DNA of 30,440 bases, taken from the NCBI GenBank assembly GCA_013203725.1, contig JABMPK010000003.1:1-30440 (forward strand), read 5' to 3'. Position 1 is the stretch's first letter. Each line of letters begins with the position of its first letter. Position numbers and translations under genes: made by a program. Below are positions 1 to 30,440 of the stretch, piece after piece. Origin of the DNA: Candidatus Uhrbacteria bacterium. GTDB taxonomy: Bacteria > Patescibacteriota > Patescibacteriia > UBA9934 > UBA11717. The notes beneath the pieces are model-generated. The model saw nothing but the letters and a program-made list of their open reading frames with translations, was not told where the DNA came from and did no database searches.

Positions 1-1
1 A

Positions 2-117
2 GCCAGTAGCGCAATGCTACTGATGAGGGTCTTGCAAACCCGTTTCTAAGCCCGAGCTCATCTGAGCTCGGGACTCCAACTAGACATTGATTCTACAACC
101 ATCAATCTCTCGAGGAG
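2..117 (+). repeat. 116-bp intergenic repeat, copy 1 (three-hairpin structured motif + leader + SD)
   Basis: Identical to 452-567 except T15/C465. Hairpins at 4-22, 27-41 and 51-72; ends in GAGGAG 6 nt before ATG 124. Confidence 0.95.
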
Positions 118-123
118 ATAAAC

Positions 124-459
124 ATGCCCGAGCCAAAGTTCGTACACGTCCCGCCGACTCTCTACATCTGTTTCGGATACAGACTGCATGTCGGTATCTG
201 TCACATCGTACTGCGTGGACATTGCGCCCAGGTCTTCGACGAAATGGCGAAGGAGGTCGCGGAACTCGAAGTACTGGACGGCCTGCTCTATGACGACCCT
301 GCGTTCGAGTCGCCGCTGCAGCTTGATGCAGCCGTCCGCGAAACGTTCGTGTCATACGACAGAATGGCGGTTCAGAAGCAGTGGGCCAAGTACCACAGTG
401 ACGCGGAGCACGCCGCTGGTCGGAAGTGCCGGCAGCGCAAATGTCACCAGTGCCAGTAG
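124..459 (+). CDS. Small hypothetical protein (111 aa), paralog of 574-879
   Basis: GAGGAG SD; ungapped 20/85 identity to the next ORF; the stop TAG lies inside hairpin 1 of repeat copy 2. Confidence 0.85.
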   Translation: MPEPKFVHVPPTLYICFGYRLHVGICHIVLRGHCAQVFDEMAKEVAELEVLDGLLYDDPAFESPLQLDAAVRETFVSYDRMAVQKQWAKYHSDAEHAAGRKCRQRKCHQCQ

Positions 460-567
460 CGCAACGCTACTGATGAGGGTCTTGCAAACCCGTTTCTAAG
501 CCCGAGCTCATCTGAGCTCGGGACTCCAACTAGACATTGATTCTACAACCATCAATCTCTCGAGGAG
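452..567 (+). repeat. 116-bp intergenic repeat, copy 2
   Basis: Exactly 450 bp after copy 1, one mismatch; hairpins at 454-472, 477-491 and 501-522. Confidence 0.95.
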
Positions 568-573
568 TCAGAC

Positions 574-879
574 ATGCCGAGCAACGACGAGCTTTTTCTG
601 GGGCGTATGGTCTTCGTGGCGTTTCCTGACATGTTGCACCTTGGCGTGTGTAGCATGGAAGTGAAGGGCATTTTCGGGGAAGTCCTGAACGAGGATGGTG
701 ATCGACTCTTCGACCTGGCCATCGACGAAGGCATCGTCCATGACGATGCTGGAGAGGTCTTCGAATTCGAGTTCGAAGTGGTCATGGGAGGAATGTTCGC
801 ATCCTTCGACCGCGCAAAGGTCCAGGAGTTCTTCCTGCGACAGTCCAGGATCGCAACGATCTTGATGAGGGCTGAATAA
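574..879 (+). CDS. Small acidic hypothetical protein (101 aa), paralog of 124-459
   Basis: GAGGAG SD; shares F-x3-LH-x-G-x-C, G-x3-DD and F-x-S-x-DR-x2-VQ with ORF 124-459 in the same register. Confidence 0.85.
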   Translation: MPSNDELFLGRMVFVAFPDMLHLGVCSMEVKGIFGEVLNEDGDRLFDLAIDEGIVHDDAGEVFEFEFEVVMGGMFASFDRAKVQEFFLRQSRIATILMRAE

Positions 880-921
880 GCCCGTTTCTACTGCACGAGC
901 CTTGAGCTCGTGTTTCCTTTT
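846..921 (+). ncRNA. Diverged third copy of the three-hairpin motif; last hairpin followed by a T-rich tract (terminator-like)
   Basis: CAGGATCG-CAA-CGATCTTG, ATGA, GGGC-N7-GCCC, GTTTCTA, CACGAGC-N5-GCTCGTG, TTTCCTTTT; compensatory changes relative to copies 1 and 2. Confidence 0.75.
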
Positions 922-971
922 GCTCGAATCCTATTCGTCTAGTAAGATGTCCCTATATTAATTGATAGATT

Positions 972-2801
972 ATGTGTGGGATTGTTGGCTATTTTGGAAA
1001 AAAGGAGGCTCAACCTGTATTAATGGAAGGGCTCAGGCGGCTTGAATATCGTGGATACGATTCGGCTGGGATCGCGACTATGGAGGGCGATGTTATTCGA
1101 ATTACTCGGTCTGTTGGAAAGGTGAGCGAGCTTGCAGCGTTGATTAAAGAGGGAGACCAGTCGAACGTTGGGATCGCCCACACACGTTGGGCGACTCACG
1201 GGAAGCCTACAGAAAGTAACGCTCATCCACACAGGAGTAACGACGGAAAAGTTGCGGTTGTCCACAACGGGATAATTGAAAACTACAAGGAGCTCAAGGA
1301 AATGTTACAGCGGTCAGGTGCCACGTTCGTTTCCGAAACTGATACGGAGGTTATTGCGCATCTGATTCGTCATGAACTTAGTTCGGGTATAAATTTGGTT
1401 GATGCGACTCGTACAGCTCTAGTTCAACTCAAGGGAACGTATGGCATTATCGTAATGTCGTCGGAATATCCAGACTACATAGTAGCTGCTCGTATGGGAT
1501 CGCCGTTGATTTTGGGAGTTGGCGACAATGAACACTACATAGCATCGGATGCATCTGCAATTTTGCGCTACACACGCCAGATGGTCTACTTGGACGATGG
1601 AGAGATTGCAGTTGTTGGCCGTGGTGGTTTTGATATTCGCACATTGGGTAACAAGATGGTCGAGAAAGAAATCGAACTGATAGATGCGGCCGAGGCTGAG
1701 ATTCAGAAGATGGGGTATCCGCATTTCATGATGAAGGAGATGATGGAGCAGCCCGATGTTTTGCTAAACTCTACTCGCGGACGGCTTGATGTTGAAAACG
1801 GTATGGCGATTCTGGGTGGACTGCGTGATGTGGCCGACCGTCTTCGCGACATTGAACGGGTTATTATTGTTGGATGTGGTTCTGCATACTACGCGGGACT
1901 CGTTGGCGAGTACATGTTGGAGGAGTATGCGGGAATTCCAGTTGAGGTGGAGCTTGGGTCCGAGTTTAGATATCGCAAACCTATTATTTCAAAAAATACG
2001 GTCGTAATTGCAATCTCGCAAAGCGGAGAGACTGCCGACACGCTTGCTGCTGTTCGTGAAGCTAAAGAAAAGGGCGCGCTGACACTTGGAATAGTGAACG
2101 CGGTAGGGTCGACCATAGCGCGCGAGACAGATGCAGGAGTCTATAACCATGCGGGACCAGAGATCGGTGTCGCTTCAACAAAAGCATTCGTGTCGCAGAT
2201 GACGGTGCTCGCATTGTTCACGCTATTTCTTGGTCGTCAGCGTTCAATGTCGCTCGTGACAGGGCAGAGGATCGCGAAAGAAATTTTGGAGCTTCCAGAT
2301 AAGGTAAAAGAAATTTTGATACAACAAGACAAGATAGGAGATATTGGTTTGCGTTACAAAGATGTTGCGCATGCGTACTTTCTCGGACGGAAATACTGTA
2401 ACCCGATCGCAATGGAGGGGGCGTTGAAGTTGAAAGAGATATCGTACATTCATGCAGAGGGATATGCGGCAGGGGAGATGAAGCACGGACCGATCGCGCT
2501 TATTGAAGACGGCTTTCCCGTGATCGTTTTAGCTCCAAAAGATTCTGTATACGATAAGTCGATGAGTAACTTGGAGGAAATTCGTGCGCGTGGTGGACGA
2601 GTGATTATGGTTACTACTGAGGGGTGTGAGATTGATAGAAATTTGGTCGATGACGTAATCTTTATTCCAAAGACTTTGGAGATGTTGACACCAATCTTGG
2701 CGGTGATTCCTCTGCAGCTTCTTGCGTACTTTGTGACAATAGAGAAAGGGTTAGATCCGGACATGCCGCGTAATCTTGCAAAATCTGTTACAGTTGAGTA
2801 A
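972..2801 (+). CDS. glmS: Glutamine--fructose-6-phosphate transaminase (isomerizing)
   Basis: N-terminal MCGIVG, HTRWATHG, SQSGETADT, C-terminal PRNLAKSVTVE. Confidence 0.99.
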   Translation: MCGIVGYFGKKEAQPVLMEGLRRLEYRGYDSAGIATMEGDVIRITRSVGKVSELAALIKEGDQSNVGIAHTRWATHGKPTESNAHPHRSNDGKVAVVHNGIIENYKELKEMLQRSGATFVSETDTEVIAHLIRHELSSGINLVDATRTALVQLKGTYGIIVMSSEYPDYIVAARMGSPLILGVGDNEHYIASDASAILRYTRQMVYLDDGEIAVVGRGGFDIRTLGNKMVEKEIELIDAAEAEIQKMGYPHFMMKEMMEQPDVLLNSTRGRLDVENGMAILGGLRDVADRLRDIERVIIVGCGSAYYAGLVGEYMLEEYAGIPVEVELGSEFRYRKPIISKNTVVIAISQSGETADTLAAVREAKEKGALTLGIVNAVGSTIARETDAGVYNHAGPEIGVASTKAFVSQMTVLALFTLFLGRQRSMSLVTGQRIAKEILELPDKVKEILIQQDKIGDIGLRYKDVAHAYFLGRKYCNPIAMEGALKLKEISYIHAEGYAAGEMKHGPIALIEDGFPVIVLAPKDSVYDKSMSNLEEIRARGGRVIMVTTEGCEIDRNLVDDVIFIPKTLEMLTPILAVIPLQLLAYFVTIEKGLDPDMPRNLAKSVTVE

Positions 2802-14490: not shown

Positions 14491-14519
14491 AATATAGCAT
14501 GGAAAGTGGGATGTGTCAA
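14491..14519 (-). promoter_or_regulatory. Sigma70 promoter of rnpB
   Basis: TTGACA-17 nt-TATATT with an extended TG; predicted start coincides with the P1 5' end. Confidence 0.85.
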
Positions 14520-14536
14520 TGCTTAGAGGGGTGAAT

Positions 14537-14568
14537 AAAAAAGCTCGATACCGAGGGGCGGTACCGAG
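14537..14568 (-). terminator. Intrinsic terminator of ORF 14585-15046
   Basis: CTCGGTACCG-CCCCT-CGGTATCGAG followed by CTTTTTT. Confidence 0.8.
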
Positions 14569-14584
14569 TTTCGTGAGTCTCTGT

Positions 14585-15046
14585 CTACGGAACGCTGAGG
14601 GAACCTGAGGTGCTGATCGAGTCCGAGATGCTGATGGACCCAAGGGTCACTCCATCGGGCCACCCGTGCACTCGTTGCCGAGCACGTCGCCTGTGCTCTC
14701 GTGGCGTCGACGCTTCTTGCGCGACCTCCGCGGGCTCTTCAGGGCTCTCGAACCAGGGCCATGGCTGCTCCAGCTTCTCCACCCAGGGTTGGCCGATCAT
14801 GTCTCCGCCACGTTCCAGGAACACGCGAACACCGTCGTTCATGTGAACGTTGGAGTCGAGGAGGATGCCGTTCAGATCGAGCGCCTGAGCGAGCGCCACC
14901 GCATGATCCACGAGGGTGAGGTACCGCTCGAGTGTCTCGATCACAGCCCACGGACGCAGGTCGCGCCGAATCATTGCACTGAACGTCTGGTAGTCAACGC
15001 TCCTGGTGAGCCACCAGATCTTGATCAAAATAACGAGTCGTCTCAT
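14585..15046 (-). CDS. GC-rich hypothetical protein (ORFan islet)
   Basis: AAGGAG SD before ATG 15046; TTGACC-18-TATCGT upstream; own terminator. Confidence 0.7.
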   Translation of the reverse strand: MRRLVILIKIWWLTRSVDYQTFSAMIRRDLRPWAVIETLERYLTLVDHAVALAQALDLNGILLDSNVHMNDGVRVFLERGGDMIGQPWVEKLEQPWPWFESPEEPAEVAQEASTPREHRRRARQRVHGWPDGVTLGSISISDSISTSGSLSVP

Positions 15047-15219
15047 TTTGAGTCTCCTTCTCGGTTGAGAGCTCAATAATCACGATATACTAAAAGAGCA
15101 ACATCGGTCAATATCCAGTGTGTCTCAGATGGCCAATCTTGGCGTAATAACGAGCTATATCCCTTGACAAAACGCCAAAAATGTGGTGTAATGAGGTCGC
15201 CTATTACATTGGAGGGCAT

Positions 15220-15615
15220 GTGGGATTTTTCAAGGAAATGGCTCTGGGATTTGTGATCCTGATGAGCGTGATTCAGAGCTGCGCCTGGGTCGACCAGGAG
15301 CAGCAGTTCCCGGACGAGCTCGCGAACGACCCCAGGGTCGAGCAGGTGATCGAGCTCAAGGAGCGCATCTGCTTCGATGAGCGAGAGAGCCTGTACGGTC
15401 CCGAGCACATGCAGGACTTGGCTGCCGATGGGCTCGACAAGGCCTTGGTGGAGCACGAAGTGCTCGTCGACGCGCTCGAGCGAGATTGGCACGTCAGCTA
15501 CGGCGCGGTGCCGTGGTGGCGGAAGAACGCCCGGTTCGCGCTCGCGCGAGTGCAGGGCATCACCGGCTTCTCGGAAGCCGGTGATCAGTGGTCGTGCGAT
15601 CCGCGCGCCTACTGA
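15220..15615 (+). CDS. GC-rich hypothetical secreted or lipoprotein-like protein
   Basis: Promoter TTGACA(15164)-17-TGTAAT; GGAGG before GTG 15220 (ATG 15238 is an alternative); hydrophobic N-terminus ending VIQSC; hairpin terminator ~15639-15665. Confidence 0.7.
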   Translation: MGFFKEMALGFVILMSVIQSCAWVDQEQQFPDELANDPRVEQVIELKERICFDERESLYGPEHMQDLAADGLDKALVEHEVLVDALERDWHVSYGAVPWWRKNARFALARVQGITGFSEAGDQWSCDPRAY

Positions 15616-15802
15616 CCAACAACCTTCAACTACTCAGCCCCCGGCCTAGCCGGGGTGTTGTTTTTGTAAAATGGTTTGTAATAAATGTGTTCATGCGTAT
15701 TCACCTGCAAACTCTGTGTAAAGTGTGGATAGCGGGCATTGACAGGTAGTGAAGAAATTGGTAGATTAGCGTTCCTTCTAAACTCAAACTGTGAGTAGCT
15801 AC

Positions 15803-16183
15803 GTGGCCAAGATCCTTGTTGTTGATGACGATGAAACAACGCGTCGGCTGATTCGCGCACTGGTTGCGCCCGGCGGGCATGTTGTAGTGGAAGCTGATTC
15901 TGGGAGGCGGGCCCTTGAGTGTTTCAGTTGCGAAGGGGACGGTATCGATCTGGTGTTGTCAGACGTTGACATGCCTGATGGGGACGGTCTCGCACTACAT
16001 GAAGCGTTGGCTGACAGACTTGGAAGTTGCCAGTTCGTATTGATGACAGGTAACAGGACAGACGACAGTCGCTTTGACTATGCTCATCGCAATGGAGTAC
16101 CGCTGCTCATGAAGGGTAGCCACAGCTTGCGAGGCTTTTTTATTGACCTGCGCCTAAACGGGGCCGGGCAAGTCTCGTACTGA
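15803..16183 (+). CDS. Stand-alone CheY-like response regulator receiver
   Basis: ILVVDDD, DLVLSDVDMP, LMTG, conserved Lys; promoter TTGACA(15739)-17-TAGATT. Confidence 0.88.
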   Translation: MAKILVVDDDETTRRLIRALVAPGGHVVVEADSGRRALECFSCEGDGIDLVLSDVDMPDGDGLALHEALADRLGSCQFVLMTGNRTDDSRFDYAHRNGVPLLMKGSHSLRGFFIDLRLNGAGQVSY

Positions 16184-16547: not shown

Positions 16548-17534
16548 TTACACAATTAAGCCAACTGCATTTTTGACCTGGATCATCTTCTCTTCTGCAA
16601 TGACACGAGCCCTTTCTGCGCCGTTCTCCAAAATCTTCTTGAGCTCTTCCTCGTTGTCTAAGTAAGCCAGAATCTTCGCACGGATTGGTGACAAGAATTC
16701 AACAAGTGCTTCTGCAACATCTTTCTTGAAGTCGCCATAGCCTTTCCCTTCGTAGTCCAAAGCGAGGTCTCCAGGGTCGCGGTCTTTGATCAAGCTTAGG
16801 ATGTCCAACATGTTTTTAACGCCGGGTTGGCTATCTGCGTAGTTAACAACTCCAATATCATCTGTAACTGCGGACATAACTTTCTTTCGGATAACGTCAG
16901 GTTCATCTGTCAGCGCGATGTAATTTTTCTCACTCGCTGCACTCTTACTCATTTTCTTTGTTGGATCGTCTAGTCCCATGATACGCGCTCCAACTTCTGT
17001 AATTTGAACACCGGGAACTACGAACGTGTCGCCGTAAGATTTGTTGAAACGTGTAGCAATGTCGCGCGTAAGTTCAACGTGCTGCTTCTGATCTTCGCCA
17101 ACAGGAATCGTGAGCGGGCTGTAGAGCAAAATATCTCCCGCCATCATAAGAGGGTAGGTGAATAAACCTACGTTTACATTTTCTCCCTGCACGATTGCTT
17201 TGTCCTTGTATTGAGTCATGCGCTCAAGCTCCGACATTCGCATGAGTGTGGAAAAGATCCAGTTCATCTCTGCGTGTTGTGGAACCGCTGACTGTTGAAA
17301 GAGGATGTTCTTTTCTGAATCAAGACCGGCTGCAAGATATGTTGCAGCTAGACTTAGGATATTTTTGCGAAGTGTCGCTGGGTTCTTTGTTGTTGTGAGC
17401 GCGTGGAGGTCAGCGATCATGATGATTCCTTCTCGGTCATTCTGAAAATCAACAAACTGTTTGATTGCGCCGAAGTAGTTGCCGATATGCAATAGATTGC
17501 TCGGCTGAATTCCACTTAAAAATCCATTATTCAT
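16548..17534 (-). CDS. trpS: Tryptophan--tRNA ligase
   Basis: SGIQPS, HIGN, PVGEDQKQH, KMSKS. Confidence 0.98.
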   Translation of the reverse strand: MNNGFLSGIQPSNLLHIGNYFGAIKQFVDFQNDREGIIMIADLHALTTTKNPATLRKNILSLAATYLAAGLDSEKNILFQQSAVPQHAEMNWIFSTLMRMSELERMTQYKDKAIVQGENVNVGLFTYPLMMAGDILLYSPLTIPVGEDQKQHVELTRDIATRFNKSYGDTFVVPGVQITEVGARIMGLDDPTKKMSKSAASEKNYIALTDEPDVIRKKVMSAVTDDIGVVNYADSQPGVKNMLDILSLIKDRDPGDLALDYEGKGYGDFKKDVAEALVEFLSPIRAKILAYLDNEEELKKILENGAERARVIAEEKMIQVKNAVGLIV

Positions 17535-17611
17535 TTTTCTAATTTAATGCCACTTTATTAATCCAACACTATCAATTATTGACCAATAGTTCAATAGTAC
17601 AAGCCAATGCT

Positions 17612-17651
17612 CGACCGCACGATCGGGACGGCCGTCCCGATCGTGCGGTCG
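17612..17651. repeat. Perfect 40-bp palindrome centred on GGACGGCCGTCC
   Basis: CGACCGCACGATCGGGACGG|CCGTCCCGATCGTGCGGTCG. Confidence 0.95.
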
Positions 17652-17732
17652 GATGCGATGTCAGAGATTCGTTTCTCAGCCATTCAAATAAAAGCGCCCG
17701 CACGTACGCGGGCTGAGTGTTCGGTCTTCCTG

Positions 17733-18425
17733 CTACCTCTTGATGACGCCGATCTCGGTCGTCTTCGGGCCGCCGCTCTTGCGACGAGACTTGGCCTTGG
17801 CCAGCATCTGCTGCTTGGCCTGGAACTTCAGAGCGCTCACGCACGCATCCATGAGCGCGAACTCGAGGAAGAGGCTGAGCGGCCCCTCCTCGCTGACGCT
17901 GCGCAGTGTCTCTGCGGTGATTTCAGCGAGCATCTCGTAGTGCAGATCACCGCGGACTTCGCTGTGCGCCTGCGTTCTGATCTTCGCAACGTTGAGCGTT
18001 GTCAGAACCGCCTTTCGAGCGATGTGCCCCAACTGCTGCCATTCCTCAGCTGCCGTTGCTGGCGTGACCCCGTCGGGAAGAGTGACGAGATCGCCCATCA
18101 CGGCTGCAACAGCTGCGTTCGCCAGAACCGTTGCCTGCGCGAATCGCTCCAGCATGACCGCGTTGCCGGCCATGAACTGTGTGAGGTACCGGTCGAGCTC
18201 TTCGGAGATCTGGAATTCGAGAACGCCCGCTGCGCCCACGATCATCGTGTCCTTGTCGCGCTCGCCATTCCTGAAGTGCGCGCGCATGCGGGCAATCAGG
18301 TCATCTTCCGGGACCACCTTCCTGAGATCAGGCGTATTCACCCGAATCACCAGTCGTAGGGCCCCTCCTCCTCGCGTACATCTTGCCGTCCACGACTGCA
18401 GACGTTCAACCCTGGTAAGTTTCAT
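17733..18425 (-). CDS. GC-rich hypothetical protein (ORFan islet)
   Basis: GAGGAG SD before ATG 18425; TTGGCA-17-TAGGTT promoter; terminator GCCCGC-N6-GCGGGC near 17693-17712. Confidence 0.75.
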   Translation of the reverse strand: MKLTRVERLQSWTARCTRGGGALRLVIRVNTPDLRKVVPEDDLIARMRAHFRNGERDKDTMIVGAAGVLEFQISEELDRYLTQFMAGNAVMLERFAQATVLANAAVAAVMGDLVTLPDGVTPATAAEEWQQLGHIARKAVLTTLNVAKIRTQAHSEVRGDLHYEMLAEITAETLRSVSEEGPLSLFLEFALMDACVSALKFQAKQQMLAKAKSRRKSGGPKTTEIGVIKR

Positions 18426-18541
18426 GCGCTCTCCTCTGTTTGTGTCTGAAAGCAACCTAGCATAAACCGAGTATTTTGCCAACCTTGCATAATCTTCACC
18501 ACGAGTTTATACTGCAAACATACTTACTTATCCATATTCCT

Positions 18542-26483: not shown

Positions 26484-26515
26484 AAAAAACGCGAGCCCCG
26501 TACGGGCTCGTTTTT
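26484..26515. terminator. Bidirectional intrinsic terminator
   Basis: CGAGCCC-CGTAC-GGGCTCG with A and T runs between convergent genes. Confidence 0.85.
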
Positions 26516-27002
26516 AGTCTGTACGCACTTTGTCCATCATGATCAACCTGTTGTCTGGAATCGACTTTGGGGGTCGGTTCTGAATTCCGTACGCGGCTGC
26601 GTAGTGGACCAGCATGACGCCTACGTCCCAGAGCATGATGACAAGATCCGGATCGCTCAAGATATCGTTTCCATCGAATTCGGGAACGATCATGTCTCCG
26701 GTGTCACGGTCGTTGCCTTTCATCATCCCGGCTCCGATGCCAATAGTGTTGGCCATCCACTGGGAGAGGAGCGCAGACTTCTCGATGTTCAGAGGGTTGT
26801 AGAGCTCCCAGTACAAATCCTCGAGCCGCAGCCAGAGTGGGTTGTATGTCTGGTAGCGCGCAAGGATCTTCACGGTCCTTAGGAAAAGCAGCCCTCCGCT
26901 TGGGAGGACGCTCTCATCTGGGACAACGATCAGTGCGAGCGTATCTTTTTCAGTGAGTCCGATACACGCATACAGCGGAGTGCGCTCAGTTCCGTCTATC
27001 AT
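26514..27002 (-). CDS. GC-rich hypothetical protein
   Basis: ATG 27002 overlaps the upstream TGA (ATGA coupling). Confidence 0.7.
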   Translation of the reverse strand: MIDGTERTPLYACIGLTEKDTLALIVVPDESVLPSGGLLFLRTVKILARYQTYNPLWLRLEDLYWELYNPLNIEKSALLSQWMANTIGIGAGMMKGNDRDTGDMIVPEFDGNDILSDPDLVIMLWDVGVMLVHYAAAYGIQNRPPKSIPDNRLIMMDKVRTD

Positions 27003-27451
27003 CGCAACGGCCTCAGTTCGACACGCGTAGCGCATCGTGCGAGGCGAATCAGTTCCAAATCGATTAGGTGATCTTCAGCAAGCTTGCGCATCGTCGCCTT
27101 TCCGACATCGCCGATTTCCATTTCCAGTTCGGTTGTAGGAATCGTGGCACCATCCAAGCAAGGGTATGCCGGGAACTTGAAGCAGCGAATTTGCATGTCG
27201 CTAAGCCCCTCCGTGATGGCGCTTTCCATCCACGCGTACAAGAGAGACAGATCCAGGTGTCCTTTTCTGAACAAGAAGTCTGCAATGCCTTCAACTTCTT
27301 GCCATGCATCGCAAACTACTCGGTAACTTGCGACGTATCTACTCCACTTTTCGCGTTGAAGTGAGAGTCCGTGAGAATCAACCAACGGCTCCACTGCGAG
27401 CAGTGCGATTTGCGGTTCTGCTCGCAAACACGACAATGGTATAACGTTCAT
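26999..27451 (-). CDS. GC-rich hypothetical protein
   Basis: CAGGAGG SD before ATG 27451. Confidence 0.72.
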   Translation of the reverse strand: MNVIPLSCLRAEPQIALLAVEPLVDSHGLSLQREKWSRYVASYRVVCDAWQEVEGIADFLFRKGHLDLSLLYAWMESAITEGLSDMQIRCFKFPAYPCLDGATIPTTELEMEIGDVGKATMRKLAEDHLIDLELIRLARCATRVELRPLR

Positions 27452-27496
27452 GGCGACCTCCTGAACCTGTTGTACACGATAACGCATGATCGCGTC

Positions 27497-27740
27497 AAAA
27501 AAAGACGACCCCCGGTACAGCGGTACCGGGAGCCGAGGTCCTTGAGGGCGACGCACAAACTACTTGCGTAGGCGTCGTGCTTCGAGTAACGAGCCACGTC
27601 GTGTGATATTCCGCCGGTCGTGCGGGCGCGCTAGACAGCCATATATGGAGTTCTCCGGGATCGTGTGTGGTGAGGGTGGCGGCTGCACGTTGCATTGCCG
27701 CGTTGTGGTCCCGCCGTAGCCGTAGCCTAGTTGGGATTGA
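27497..27740 (-). ncRNA. Candidate small RNA or regulatory leader
   Basis: Promoter TTGACA(27773)-17-TAACAT, GC-rich stems including a GCAA-capped hairpin, terminator with a T7 tract; no SD-led ORF. Confidence 0.4.
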
Positions 27741-27854
27741 AAATATGTTAACAAAGCGAAATAATTCTGTCAAAAAACACGACTCTAAAAAAAATGACCT
27801 CCCCCGGCACCGTAGTGCAGGAGGAGGTCGCAGTAGAATCTATCAGTCGGGCTT

Positions 27855-27905
27855 GGGGACAGTCCCGGGGACAGGTACGGGGACAGTCCCCGGGACTGTC
27901 CCCGT
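27855..27905. repeat. GGGGACAGTCCC cluster with a 29-bp palindrome
   Basis: Tandem GGGGACAG units; ACGGGGACAGTCCC-C-GGGACTGTCCCCGT at 27877-27905. Confidence 0.85.
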
Positions 27906-27957
27906 TATCGTGAGTACCGTTGCATATGACTGATAATATTGCTAATATAAAGGAACT

Positions 27958-30440
27958 ATGCAGAATTACGATCATAAAAACGACGCAAAATGGCAGGCGG
28001 CCTGGGATAAGGCTGGGATCTTTGGTGCTGAGGAGAGCTCAGATCCTACTTCGCGTGAAGCTTCGAAGGACAAGCGCGAGAAGTTTTATTGTTTAATCGA
28101 GTTTCCATTTCCGTCGGGGTCTGGATTGCATGTTGGGCACGTGCGATCGTACGCCGCCTTTGACACCGTTGCGCGCAAACGGCGTATGGAAGGGTACAAC
28201 GTCTTGTATCCAATCGGTTGGGATGCTTTTGGATTGCCTGCAGAAAATCATGCAATCAAAACTGGGCGTAACCCGCGAGAGAATACAAAAGACAACACGG
28301 ACAATTATCGCAAGCAGTTGAAGTCACTCGGACTAAGCTTTGACTGGGCGCGAGAGATCAACACGACTGACCCTGAGTACTACAAATGGACGCAGTGGAT
28401 GTTCTTGGAATTTTTCGACGCAGGTTTGGCGTACAAGAAAAAGTTGGCGATCAACTGGTGCGTTAGTTGTAAGATTGGGTTGGCAAACGAGGAAGTTGTG
28501 AACGGTGCGTGTGAAAGATGTGGTGGTACTGTTGAGAAGCGCGATAAAGATCAGTGGATGATTGCGATTACAAAATACGCAGACCGGTTGATTGATGATC
28601 TTGAGGGGTTGGACTATTTGGAAAAAATTAAGAAGCAACAAGTTGATTGGATCGGACGATCGGAAGGAGCGTCGATTACTTTTGCGGTTGATGGAAGCGA
28701 TGAGAAGATAGAGGTCTTCACGACACGACCGGATACGTTGTTCGGAGCGACGTACATGGTGTTAGCACCAGAGCACGAACTCGTAAACAAGATCACGAGC
28801 GATACTCAGCGAGATGTGGTTGCTAAGTATGTAAAAGATTCTGTAAAGAAAACCGATATTGAACGCGGTGATGCGGAAAAAGAAAAAACCGGAGTAGCGA
28901 CGGGCGCATTTGCGGTGAACCCAGCAACGGGCGACAAGATTCCAGTTTGGGTTGCAGACTACGTACTCATGGGCTACGGAACAGGGGCGATCATGGCCGT
29001 ACCAGCTCACGACGCGCGGGATTACATGTTCGCGAGGGAATTTGATCTCGAAATTGTTACAGTTATCGAACCAGACGGTGATGTCAGCGGAGTGGGAGTA
29101 TTGCTGGAGTCGCATTCTGGTTCGTATATGTTTCAGGAGCGAGATGGAAATACGAAAAAAGATCCTAATATGGTCACGGCCTTTGGGGGAGGGATAGAAT
29201 CTGGCGAAACTGCTATCGACGCTGCAGTGCGCGAGGTAAGAGAAGAGACAGGACTGAATATTGATGTATCTGATCTCAACGTGGTAATAGATCTTGCTAG
29301 TAGAAACACGGAGGGCCAAAAGATCCGAATGTTTGTTGCTCGAGGTTTTGATGCAAAGAATGTGATTGTGTCAGAGGGTAGGGGTATGGCGGAAATGAGC
29401 CTTGATGAAGCGCTAACGTCTGATAAAGTTACAGAATTTACAAAAGAAGCATTATCGAACCTTGATAGTGCATACACAGGAAACGGACGCCTTGTAAACT
29501 CCGACTTCTTAAACGGCCTCGACGTCGAGTCTGCGAAAAAGAAGATGATCGCGTGGCTTGAAGAGAATAAGGTTGGGGAAGGGAAGGTGAATTACCGGTT
29601 GCGGGATTGGGTTTTTTCTAGACAGCGATACTGGGGTGAGCCTATTCCTTTGGTGCACTGTGAAAGTTGCGGATGGGTTCCGGTTCCTGTTGACCAGTTA
29701 CCAGTTGAGCTGCCAGATGTGGAGAAGTACGAGCCGACGGATTCGGGTGAGTCTCCTTTGGCGGCTATCACGGATTGGGTGAATACAAAATGTCCTAAGT
29801 GTGATGGTGACGCTAAGCGCGAGACGGACACAATGCCAAACTGGGCCGGGTCGTCTTGGTATTTTATGCGGTACATCGATCCGCACAACAGCGAGGCTTT
29901 TGCAGACGCCGACAAACTTAAGCACTGGATGCCGGTGGACTGGTACAACGGCGGGATGGAGCACACGACGCTTCACTTGTTGTACTCGCGTTTCTGGAAC
30001 AAGTTCATGTATGACCGAGGACACGTGCCTGTATCCGAGCCGTATGCAAAGCGTACGAGTCACGGTTTGATTTTAGCGGAAGACGGATCGAAGATGTCTA
30101 AGTCAAAGGGGAACGTTGTGAACCCGGACGACATTGTAGAAAAGTTTGGCGCAGATACTTTACGAGTTTACGAGATGTTTATTGGACCGTTTGGAGAGCC
30201 GGCGCCTTGGAGCGACAATGGTTTGATGGGAGTAAAGCGGTTCTTGGATAAGTCGGCGCGGTTGAGTGAGATGATCGTGGACGCAGAATCCGAGCTCGTT
30301 ACCAAATCGTTGCATAAGATGATCAAGAAAGTGGGAGAGGACATTGAGGCGATGCGGTTTAATACTGCGGTGTCGGCGATGATGATTTTTGTGAATGACG
30401 TCACGGGTGAAGAGGGGATCACTAAGGAAAGTTTTGAGAC
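27958..30440 (+). CDS. leuS: Leucine--tRNA ligase with internal NUDIX domain (3' truncated by window; absent from the ORF track)
   Basis: Own translation from ATG 27958: [62 protein letters not shown]. Confidence 0.97.

Follow-up and report, generated by a model that had tools for sequence, protein, structure and literature searches.

Tandem orphan paralogs and near-identical intergenic modules in an accessory island of a Candidatus Uhrbacteria genome

The stretch of DNA analysed here, referred to as the window, is the 30,440-nt contig JABMPK010000003.1 of a Candidatus Uhrbacteria bacterium (assembly GCA_013203725.1), a member of the candidate phyla radiation (CPR). It corresponds to contig C13 of the genome we call G000, an 894-kb assembly of 107 contigs that is 88% complete. 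The left end of the window carries two small open reading frames (ORFs), ORF1 and ORF2, each preceded by a spacer. These spacers, S1 and S2, are 96-99% identical, the higher value applying to a sharp-ended tract within them, whereas the coding parts of the two ORFs share only ~23% identity. ORF1 and ORF2 belong to a tandem of three old duplicates of one orphan gene, known only from this genus; they are the last two members of the tandem and lie at the 3' end of a predicted operon. This operon occupies an island between the core genes ruvA and glmS, in which a module of the same family stands before every gene. We consider it probable that the ancient paralogs belong to an accessory operon whose repeated module serves both as an mRNA element and as portable homology, and that S1 and S2 were homogenised recently.

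Distant paralogs behind near-identical spacers

The direct repeat comprises window positions 2-128 and 452-578, which are 97% identical over 127 nt. Base-by-base reading of 2-117 against 452-567 revealed a single difference, T13 versus C463, and the 6 nt directly 5' of each ATG contribute three more (ATAAAC before ORF1, TCAGAC before ORF2). A preliminary description of the sequence had stated that the spacers differ at one base; this holds for the 116-nt tract, while the whole spacer from stop codon to ATG differs at four. The repeat begins within the final codons of the upstream ORF (GCC AGT AG) and stops just past the Shine-Dalgarno sequence GAGGAG, and the tract of identity ends sharply at positions 2 and 117. 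The left end of the window is arranged as follows.

1-9, plus strand: last three codons (AGC CAG TAG) of a third paralog of 151 aa, the body of which lies on contig C21 (L005:109-564, minus strand)
2-117, plus strand: spacer copy S1, with hairpins H0 (4-22), H1 (27-41), H2 (51-72) and H3 (82-110)
124-459, plus strand: ORF1, 111 aa, paralog 1 (P0001), with an AlphaFold2 model and the ortholog P0004
452-567, plus strand: spacer copy S2, with C463 in place of T13 of S1; it starts in the last codons of ORF1 and provides the ORF1 stop
574-879, plus strand: ORF2, 101 aa, paralog 2 (P0003), isoelectric point (pI) 4.3, without an ortholog in any database searched
845-890, plus strand: diverged third partial copy (74%), a 46-nt H0-UGAUGAGG-H1 segment that is translated as the C-terminus of ORF2

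ORF1 and ORF2 align without gaps at 20 identities over 89 positions, and the BLASTP E-value of 2e-11 shows that this similarity is not due to chance. They are distant but true paralogs, as had been read from the sequence before, and the accompanying suggestion of a diverging family was borne out by the 151-aa protein, which aligns with both (25% identity to ORF1, 35% to ORF2). ORF1 is 63% identical to its ortholog P0004 in the sister species, with a ratio of nonsynonymous to synonymous substitution rates (dN/dS) of 0.18. Across the ortholog pairs of island genes, dN/dS ranged from 0.17 to 0.42, which implies that the island ORFs are real genes under purifying selection. A word-indexed search of 5.8 billion clusters returned six members of the paralog family, all of them from this genus, and a profile hidden Markov model scan of 1.84 billion representatives recovered only our own three proteins and one spurious repetitive ORF.

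The AlphaFold2 model of ORF1, built on a six-sequence alignment, reached a pLDDT of 83 and a pTM of 0.72 and comprises six strands and, after them, a C-terminal helix of 25 residues; the paralogs are predicted to fold as a beta-barrel plus helix. Fold searches (PDB by Foldseek and VIA wide, BFVD, AFDB clusters and ESM Atlas) returned no usable match, the best values being a Foldseek E of 0.04, a VIA Z of 3.8 and a TM of at most 0.46. The top structural rows, of PH/PTB and of PWWP/chromo-like type, were too weak and were not used. Only M1, F17, L21, G24, C26, S77 and Q84 are invariant across the six family members. A metal site formed by conserved His, Cys, Asp and Glu residues had been considered in the preliminary description; it is not supported, because few residues are invariant and H22 is replaced by Glu in the closest ortholog, P0004. 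The pI values of the three paralogs spread over 6.4, 4.3 and 11.0.

A structured module before every gene of a variable island

The window opens within a coding sequence, and a further unit had been expected to its left. Such a unit was found on contig C21 of the same genome, whose start is the reverse complement of window 1-117 (117-nt overlap, 100% identity) and which encodes the 151-aa third paralog, ending in ...GGA AGC CAG TAG. In the orientation of the window, the features of C21 (coordinates given as L005) lie on a single strand. The genes ileS and ruvA are followed by a non-coding stretch with a promoter and a terminator and by a second promoter (TTGACA-17-TAAAAC); then come a 57-aa ORF, an 18-codon mini-ORF (MDYFGAIHF...), an element X of ~280 nt, a 63-aa ORF, a 174-aa ORF, a 104-aa DUF1874 protein and the 151-aa protein. 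As relatives we compared a species of the same genus (G005, L016, and a 929-kb contig) and a third lineage (L008/L009/L039). Each of these carries ruvA, the DUF1874 gene, the family paralogs and glmS in the same order on a single contig, and because the relatives hold ruvA, island and glmS together in this way, the join between C21 and C13 is validated.

From promoter to terminator the island spans 3,844 nt, bordered on one side by ruvA with an sRNA gene and on the other by glmS. Its GC content is 56.3%; ruvA and glmS have 48% and the genome as a whole 47.4%. In another genus of the family the gap between ruvA and glmS measures ~390 nt and holds only a promoter-driven structured RNA (a small RNA gene); the near-emptiness of this gap implies that the island is an insertion specific to the genus studied here. 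All island ORFs are co-oriented, a single promoter of sigma70 type (TTGACA-17-TAAAAC) was recognised by sequence at the island start, and a promoter scan found no sigma70-like promoter in the spacers. Two features mark the right-hand end.

893-921, plus strand: intrinsic terminator, in which a U-run comes after an H2-like hairpin (GCACGAGCC..GGCUCGUG); it marks the end of the island operon and is conserved in both relatives
972-2801, plus strand: glmS (47.9% GC), the core gene that flanks the island on the right

Within window 1-1000 the sole clear terminator was scored at 893-913; the one other site picked up was a short H1-like stem at 869-883. The simplest reading of this layout is that the island would be transcribed as one polycistronic mRNA with structured modules between its cistrons. 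The other island proteins are of extreme charge (pI 4.2 for the 174-aa, 4.1 for the 119-aa, 12.0 for the 57-aa and 11.2 for the 63-aa protein), and a database search found no homolog at all of the 174-aa gene.

The content and order of the island were compared in three lineages, namely G000, G005 and the third lineage.

G000: promoter, 57-aa gene, mini-ORF, X, 63-aa gene, 174-aa gene, DUF1874 gene, 151-aa gene, ORF1, ORF2, terminator
G005: promoter, mini-ORF, 63-aa gene, DUF1874 gene, X, 158-aa gene, 121-aa gene, terminator
Third lineage: promoter, 57-aa gene, mini-ORF, 63-aa gene, DUF1874 gene (a pseudogene with an in-frame stop), 119-aa gene, 154-aa gene, terminator, then an orphan module

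The 57-aa, 174-aa and 119-aa genes, ORF1 and ORF2 thus vary in presence among the islands, and X takes a different position in G000 and G005. A fixed order across relatives would have spoken against the exchange of ORFs as units; the order was found not to be fixed. When a map of BLAST blocks was laid over the module positions, every island breakpoint in the three islands coincided with a module.

Island genes have diverged less at synonymous sites than their neighbours. For the same genome pairs, the synonymous substitution rate (dS) was 0.4-1.5 for island genes and 2.2-2.8 for the flanking ruvA and glmS, that is, 2-6 times lower in the island, while dN/dS of the island was about ten times that of the flanks. 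The DUF1874 gene (B116) is 89.5% identical at the DNA level between G000 and the third lineage, compared with 77-78% for the flanks. Low dS, the high identity of this gene and the GC excess together suggest that the island or parts of it were exchanged laterally between species of the genus after their divergence. A foreign or laterally exchanged origin of the island as such appears plausible.

Across the three genomes we found 20 copies of the module, one 5' of every island gene. Each consists of a GC-rich hairpin (CCCGAnnn...nnnUCGGG) without a U-run, and then of CUCN-(A)ACU-helix-YGA-NGAG, which either precedes the Shine-Dalgarno sequence or overlaps it. In S1, H0 (4-22) contains the upstream stop codon, and H2 (51-72) is GC-rich and lacks a U-tract. 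In copies of the ORF1 type, an outer helix formed by CUCC (74-77) and GGAG (114-117) encloses H3 (82-110), so the module pairs with the Shine-Dalgarno sequence itself. Folding of window 1-135 as RNA yielded four hairpins at -44.9 kcal/mol (z -4.15). Among the seven ORF1-type copies, 96% of cells were paired, as against at most 51% in slid controls, and compensatory changes affected H2 and the basal pairs of H3 (AGA/UCU to GGA/UCC). Compensations were also recognised by eye in other module types (ACUCU/AGAGU, GCUC/GAGC, ACUA/UAGU, and GAGCC/GGUUC to GAGCU/AGUUC). As the sequences are few and related, this covariation is supportive, not conclusive. Judged from its sequence, the module may function at the mRNA level, both in processing or stability and in translational control through occlusion of the Shine-Dalgarno sequence.

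In the 894-kb genome, an nhmmer profile of the seven ORF1-type modules had matches at island positions alone, and those to the other module types were weak. The module pattern was absent from the viral contigs of IMG/VR, and a scan of metagenome contigs detected the module in the third lineage only, the 22 other matches being chance. A second module pattern gave three matches, all unrelated, and the TTCTGAGAG-type motif that occurs elsewhere in the genome is likewise unrelated to the module. Rfam holds no family for the window, C21 or the islands of the relatives. A hammerhead-like reading of the CUGAUGAGG-stem was discarded, as on neither strand is stem II followed by GAAA. The window contains three further GC-rich patches (14500-16000, 17500-18500 and 26500-28000; 0.54-0.61 versus ~0.47), from all of which the island module was absent by nhmmer.

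Other non-coding elements accompany the operon. A module variant at L005:2650-2715 (minus strand), with equivalents in L016 and L008, presents the invariant loop GCCAUGCUU on a covarying stem and precedes the conserved mini-ORF, which starts with MDYFG(A/T)IHF and has a variable end; mini-ORF and module may together form a leader peptide or attenuator at the operon start. Element X (L005:2231-2509 and L016:2009-2285, both minus strand) is non-coding, measures ~280 nt and is 75% identical between the species. RNAalifold on the two sequences predicted 64 pairs, 8 of them with compensatory changes, and neither an Rfam match nor a conserved ORF was found; X is a candidate for a structured RNA that moves as a unit. 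Directly after ruvA, a promoter of the sequence TTGACA-17-TATATT, with TG, and a terminator that is likewise strong in appearance enclose a non-coding transcript (L005:3089-3653, minus strand). The 5' part of this transcript is conserved in two relatives (L016, L008), in which a terminator follows after ~150 nt. In the other genus (L053) the same ruvA-glmS gap is occupied by a different RNA, which is GC-rich, ~270 nt long and closed by a long stem, and Rfam gave no match for the post-ruvA RNAs in any of these genomes.

Origin of the spacer identity

Over the sharp-ended tract the identity of S1 and S2 reaches 99%. Between species, orthologous spacers share only 82-85% identity, and the paralogous spacer 5' of the 151-aa gene (S151) is 79% identical to S1. 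The contrast with the orthologous spacers implies that recent recombination copied one of the two onto the other and that selection alone is insufficient to explain their identity. At its 3' end the 151-aa gene carries an H0 segment whose ortholog is that of the 158-aa gene in G005. In addition, the G005 ortholog of ORF1 has a ~70% diverged H0-like 3' end within a C-terminus that is 10 codons longer. From this we conclude that a diverged homologous target once lay behind ORF1 and was overwritten, by which ORF1 received a new, earlier stop. Gene conversion between neighbouring modules fits best; a single unequal crossover between the haplotypes 151-S-ORF1 and 151-S-ORF2 is possible.

Our working model is that the structured modules would act on the mRNA between the genes of an operon with one promoter and one terminator, and that the repeated module would at the same time provide portable homology. 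RecA-type recombination between module copies could then duplicate, delete and move gene units, and this is presumably the pathway by which the modules recombine. The latest event would have been the overwriting of one spacer by the other through gene conversion, or the joining of two haplotypes by unequal crossover.

Several points weigh against this model. Behind the 151-aa gene, contigs of two assemblies stop precisely where the spacer ends and the two spacers begin to differ; one of them is an independent JGI contig with the 151-aa gene, which stops at the same GAGGAG. Junctions were followed in Logan k=31 contigs of 3-9x depth, and one such contig, from another run, leads from the end of the 151-aa gene through the spacer into ORF2. 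The population may be heterogeneous, or the ORF1 unit may also occur as an excised circle; the junction graph is compatible with a 450-bp circle of S and ORF1. For the proteins, no match of the paralogs in Pfam, PHROGs, PADLOC or NCBIfam rose above noise. For the module, covariation is thin, with two pairs altered on both sides among seven related copies, and its RNA-level role, the co-transcription of the island and processing are all deduced from sequence. GC or codon constraint could lie partly behind the low dS of the island, and as the lineages number only three, gain is not separable from loss, nor conversion from unequal crossover.

The same junctions bear on another explanation, in which 151-S-ORF1 and 151-S-ORF2 are two alleles of one slot, brought together by one recent unequal or homology-facilitated illegitimate event or by an assembly that concatenated strains, and no long-standing array with conversion exists. 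This would agree with the sister species, where 158-S-121 (the ORF1 type) is followed by the terminator without an ORF2, with the lack of an ORF2 ortholog anywhere, with the contig breaks at the spacer end in two assemblies and with the Logan contig that runs from the 151-aa gene over S into ORF2. However, k=31 contigs at 3-4x depth cannot phase a 104-nt exact repeat (14-117 and 464-567), so the latter contig may be a shortcut through the repeat and demonstrates neither a deletion haplotype nor an excised circle of S and ORF1. C13 continues unbroken from ORF1 over S2 and ORF2 into glmS, and each of the four junctions (151 to S, S to ORF1, ORF1 to S, S to ORF2) was seen in separate runs. In the Logan contigs the choice of T or C goes with the neighbour on the left, which is expected of two physical copies and argues against a simple assembly collapse. 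Moreover, ORF2 has an old, diverged H0-H1 tail of its own (74%), which fits a long-resident unit, and we regard the joining of two alleles as rather improbable. That purifying selection for a functional RNA or DNA element was strong enough to keep the spacers near-identical, without recombination, seems scarcely credible to us: the stems of this structured module are indeed preserved from copy to copy, but the module differs by 15-30% at orthologous and other paralogous positions, and S1 and S2 are identical in loops and linkers too, within a tract that ends sharply at 2 and 117.

An integron-like system, with the spacers as attC-type sites and the ORFs as cassettes of a dedicated recombinase, would account for small co-oriented ORFs without promoters of their own behind a single upstream promoter, for the structured repeats between them and for a cassette content that differs between relatives. 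The preliminary description had likened the array to an integron, though one without canonical attC, and advised extending it leftward in search of a recombinase, transposase or reverse transcriptase. The extension yielded more units, but ORF and profile scans in three lineages found no integrase, transposase or reverse transcriptase between ruvA and glmS, and the tyrosine recombinase matches of G000 (PF00589) lie on other contigs, only C46, C102 and C26. Window 1-921 contains no GTTRRRY or RYYYAAC core, and the bottom strand of the spacer folds as single-stranded DNA into four separate short hairpins, not into one long bulged attC-like hairpin. In addition, the last three "cassettes" are paralogs, as tandem duplication predicts. 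We judge a dedicated cassette system very unlikely. The idea of exchange through homogenised spacers is upheld as far as variable content and order, breaks at modules and the homogenisation of S1 and S2 are concerned; its site-specific mechanism is not. A diversity-generating retroelement was also rejected, as the island has no reverse transcriptase ORF and the repeat is intergenic, its one difference being T/C where such an element would show A-specific changes. The locus is not an integron, not a diversity-generating retroelement and not a known RNA family.

Chromosomal integrons, for example those with Vibrio VCRs, consist of promoterless, co-oriented ORFs separated by near-identical attC repeats of ~120 nt behind a single upstream promoter. 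The island resembles them in repeats that are far more alike than the ORFs, in its one promoter and in its variable content; it differs by having no IntI, attI, R''/R' cores or single bulged hairpin, and by three units that are paralogous. In phage T7, the gaps between the early genes (0.3/ocr, 0.7, 1, 1.1-1.3) carry RNase III processing hairpins, in a polycistronic operon that includes anti-defence genes. One upstream promoter and related irregular hairpins with internal loops beside the ribosome-binding site in every gap are common to both, although the island is chromosomal and has no sequence similarity to the T7 sites. A sharp-ended tract of identity in diverged units and variable copy number also recall concerted evolution and homology-facilitated illegitimate recombination. 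Compared with the concerted evolution of rRNA or tuf genes, the island shows the reverse, in that the non-coding module is homogenised while the coding part escapes.

The nearest analogue is found in the hyperplastic regions of T4-type phages. There, small, non-essential and mostly orphan genes are set apart by PeSLs (promoter early stem-loop elements), repeated cassettes of promoter and stem-loop; recombination between these cassettes shuffles the genes as modules, with indels and replacements between close relatives and, in principle, mini-circles (Arbiol et al. 2010, PMC2839356; Comeau et al. 2014, PMC4122927). As in these regions, small and mostly orphan genes of the island are separated by conserved stem-loop cassettes, and the ends of indels and replacements between close relatives fall in the cassettes. 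The PeSL, however, combines a strong sigma70 early promoter with a terminator stem-loop and is phage-borne. The island module has no promoter, its GC-rich hairpin lacks a U-run, and it lies on a CPR chromosome, where with its helix occluding the Shine-Dalgarno sequence it has the look of an intercistronic mRNA element.

A ring nuclease homolog and the possible role of the island

Two units upstream of ORF1 lies a neighbouring gene of a known family.

L005:810-1124, minus strand: gene of a DUF1874/AcrIII-1-like ring nuclease (PF08960 match)

The protein matches PF08960 at an E-value of 4e-13 (49.7 bits versus a cut-off of 26), and further matches are PHROG 5063, Csx16, AFV3-109 (E 4.5e-12) and SIRV1 gp29. 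Its H43 aligns with H47 of SIRV1 gp29 (2x4i), and the GH motif and RLPEG are kept. H47 is the catalytic His of the AcrIII-1 ring nuclease (Athukoralage et al., bioRxiv 10.1101/778746). From these sequence features the gene is a putative AcrIII-1-type ring nuclease homolog. It shares with the AcrIII-1, Crn2 and Csx16 ring nucleases the PF08960 match and the conserved His; it is a neighbour of ORF1 and ORF2, not part of them. No Cas1, RAMP or Cas10 was found in G000, which is 88% complete. In the third lineage the gene (L008:9141-9458) is broken by an in-frame TAG, reading GGTGACTAGATG where G000 has GGTGATCAGATG. Outside the genus, the closest DUF1874 homologs (~55-60% identity) occur on AT-rich CPR-like contigs, in runs of small unannotated ORFs among housekeeping genes. 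In two cases (L054:3186-7267 and the contig of P0022) such a run is preceded by a TrmB-family regulator and by a long gap without coding sequence, and on one of these CPR-like contigs a Ro60/TROVE gene adjoins the DUF1874 run.

An anti-defence or host-interaction role of the island is a reasonable hypothesis, which draws only on the DUF1874 neighbour and on general protein properties; the paralogs may share in such a role. Taken further, the island might be the remnant of an early or anti-defence operon of a phage or plasmid, with the paralogs as diversifying anti-defence proteins, possibly of an episymbiont against the immunity of its host, and with small arginine-rich proteins that bind RNA modules as lambda N does at nut. 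The ring nuclease homolog with its catalytic His and its match to Csx16, in a genome without Cas1, RAMP or Cas10 and thus without a cognate host system, speaks for this origin, as do orphan proteins that are either strongly acidic (pI 4.1-4.3) or strongly basic (pI 11-12), a GC content 9 points above that of the genome and a dS below that of the flanks. On the other hand, the island contains no phage structural, replication or integration genes and has no match in viral contigs, it occupies a fixed chromosomal slot in three lineages, and the DUF1874 genes of other CPR-like contigs also lie among housekeeping genes. A CRISPR locus could, moreover, have been missed in a genome that is 88% complete. 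A phage or plasmid remnant is possible in our view, if on the unlikely side, and we prefer the account of an accessory operon whose repeated modules are mRNA elements and portable homology.

The genomes of CPR bacteria (Patescibacteria) are tiny and rich in orphans, and the turnover of their accessory genes is little known. The locus provides a compact example of such turnover, which can be compared over three lineages in one chromosomal slot and which takes place at repeated regulatory modules without a dedicated recombinase at the locus. Module-borne turnover is known for T4-type phages; we know of no case on a CPR chromosome. The island also supplies candidates for anti-defence or host interaction, namely a ring nuclease homolog without a detectable CRISPR system and very acidic and very basic orphans, as well as a repeated RNA motif as a candidate for function. 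More speculatively, and in our estimate improbably, the island could be an integrase-free cassette platform of CPR bacteria, in which the RNA module would control each gene and serve as homology by which gene units are gained, lost, duplicated and reordered, possibly by way of mini-circles, and in which the ring nuclease and the fast-diverging orphans would be directed against the immunity of hosts or competitors. If this were true, an episymbiont without a CRISPR system of its own might deploy the island proteins against the immunity of its host or of competing elements.

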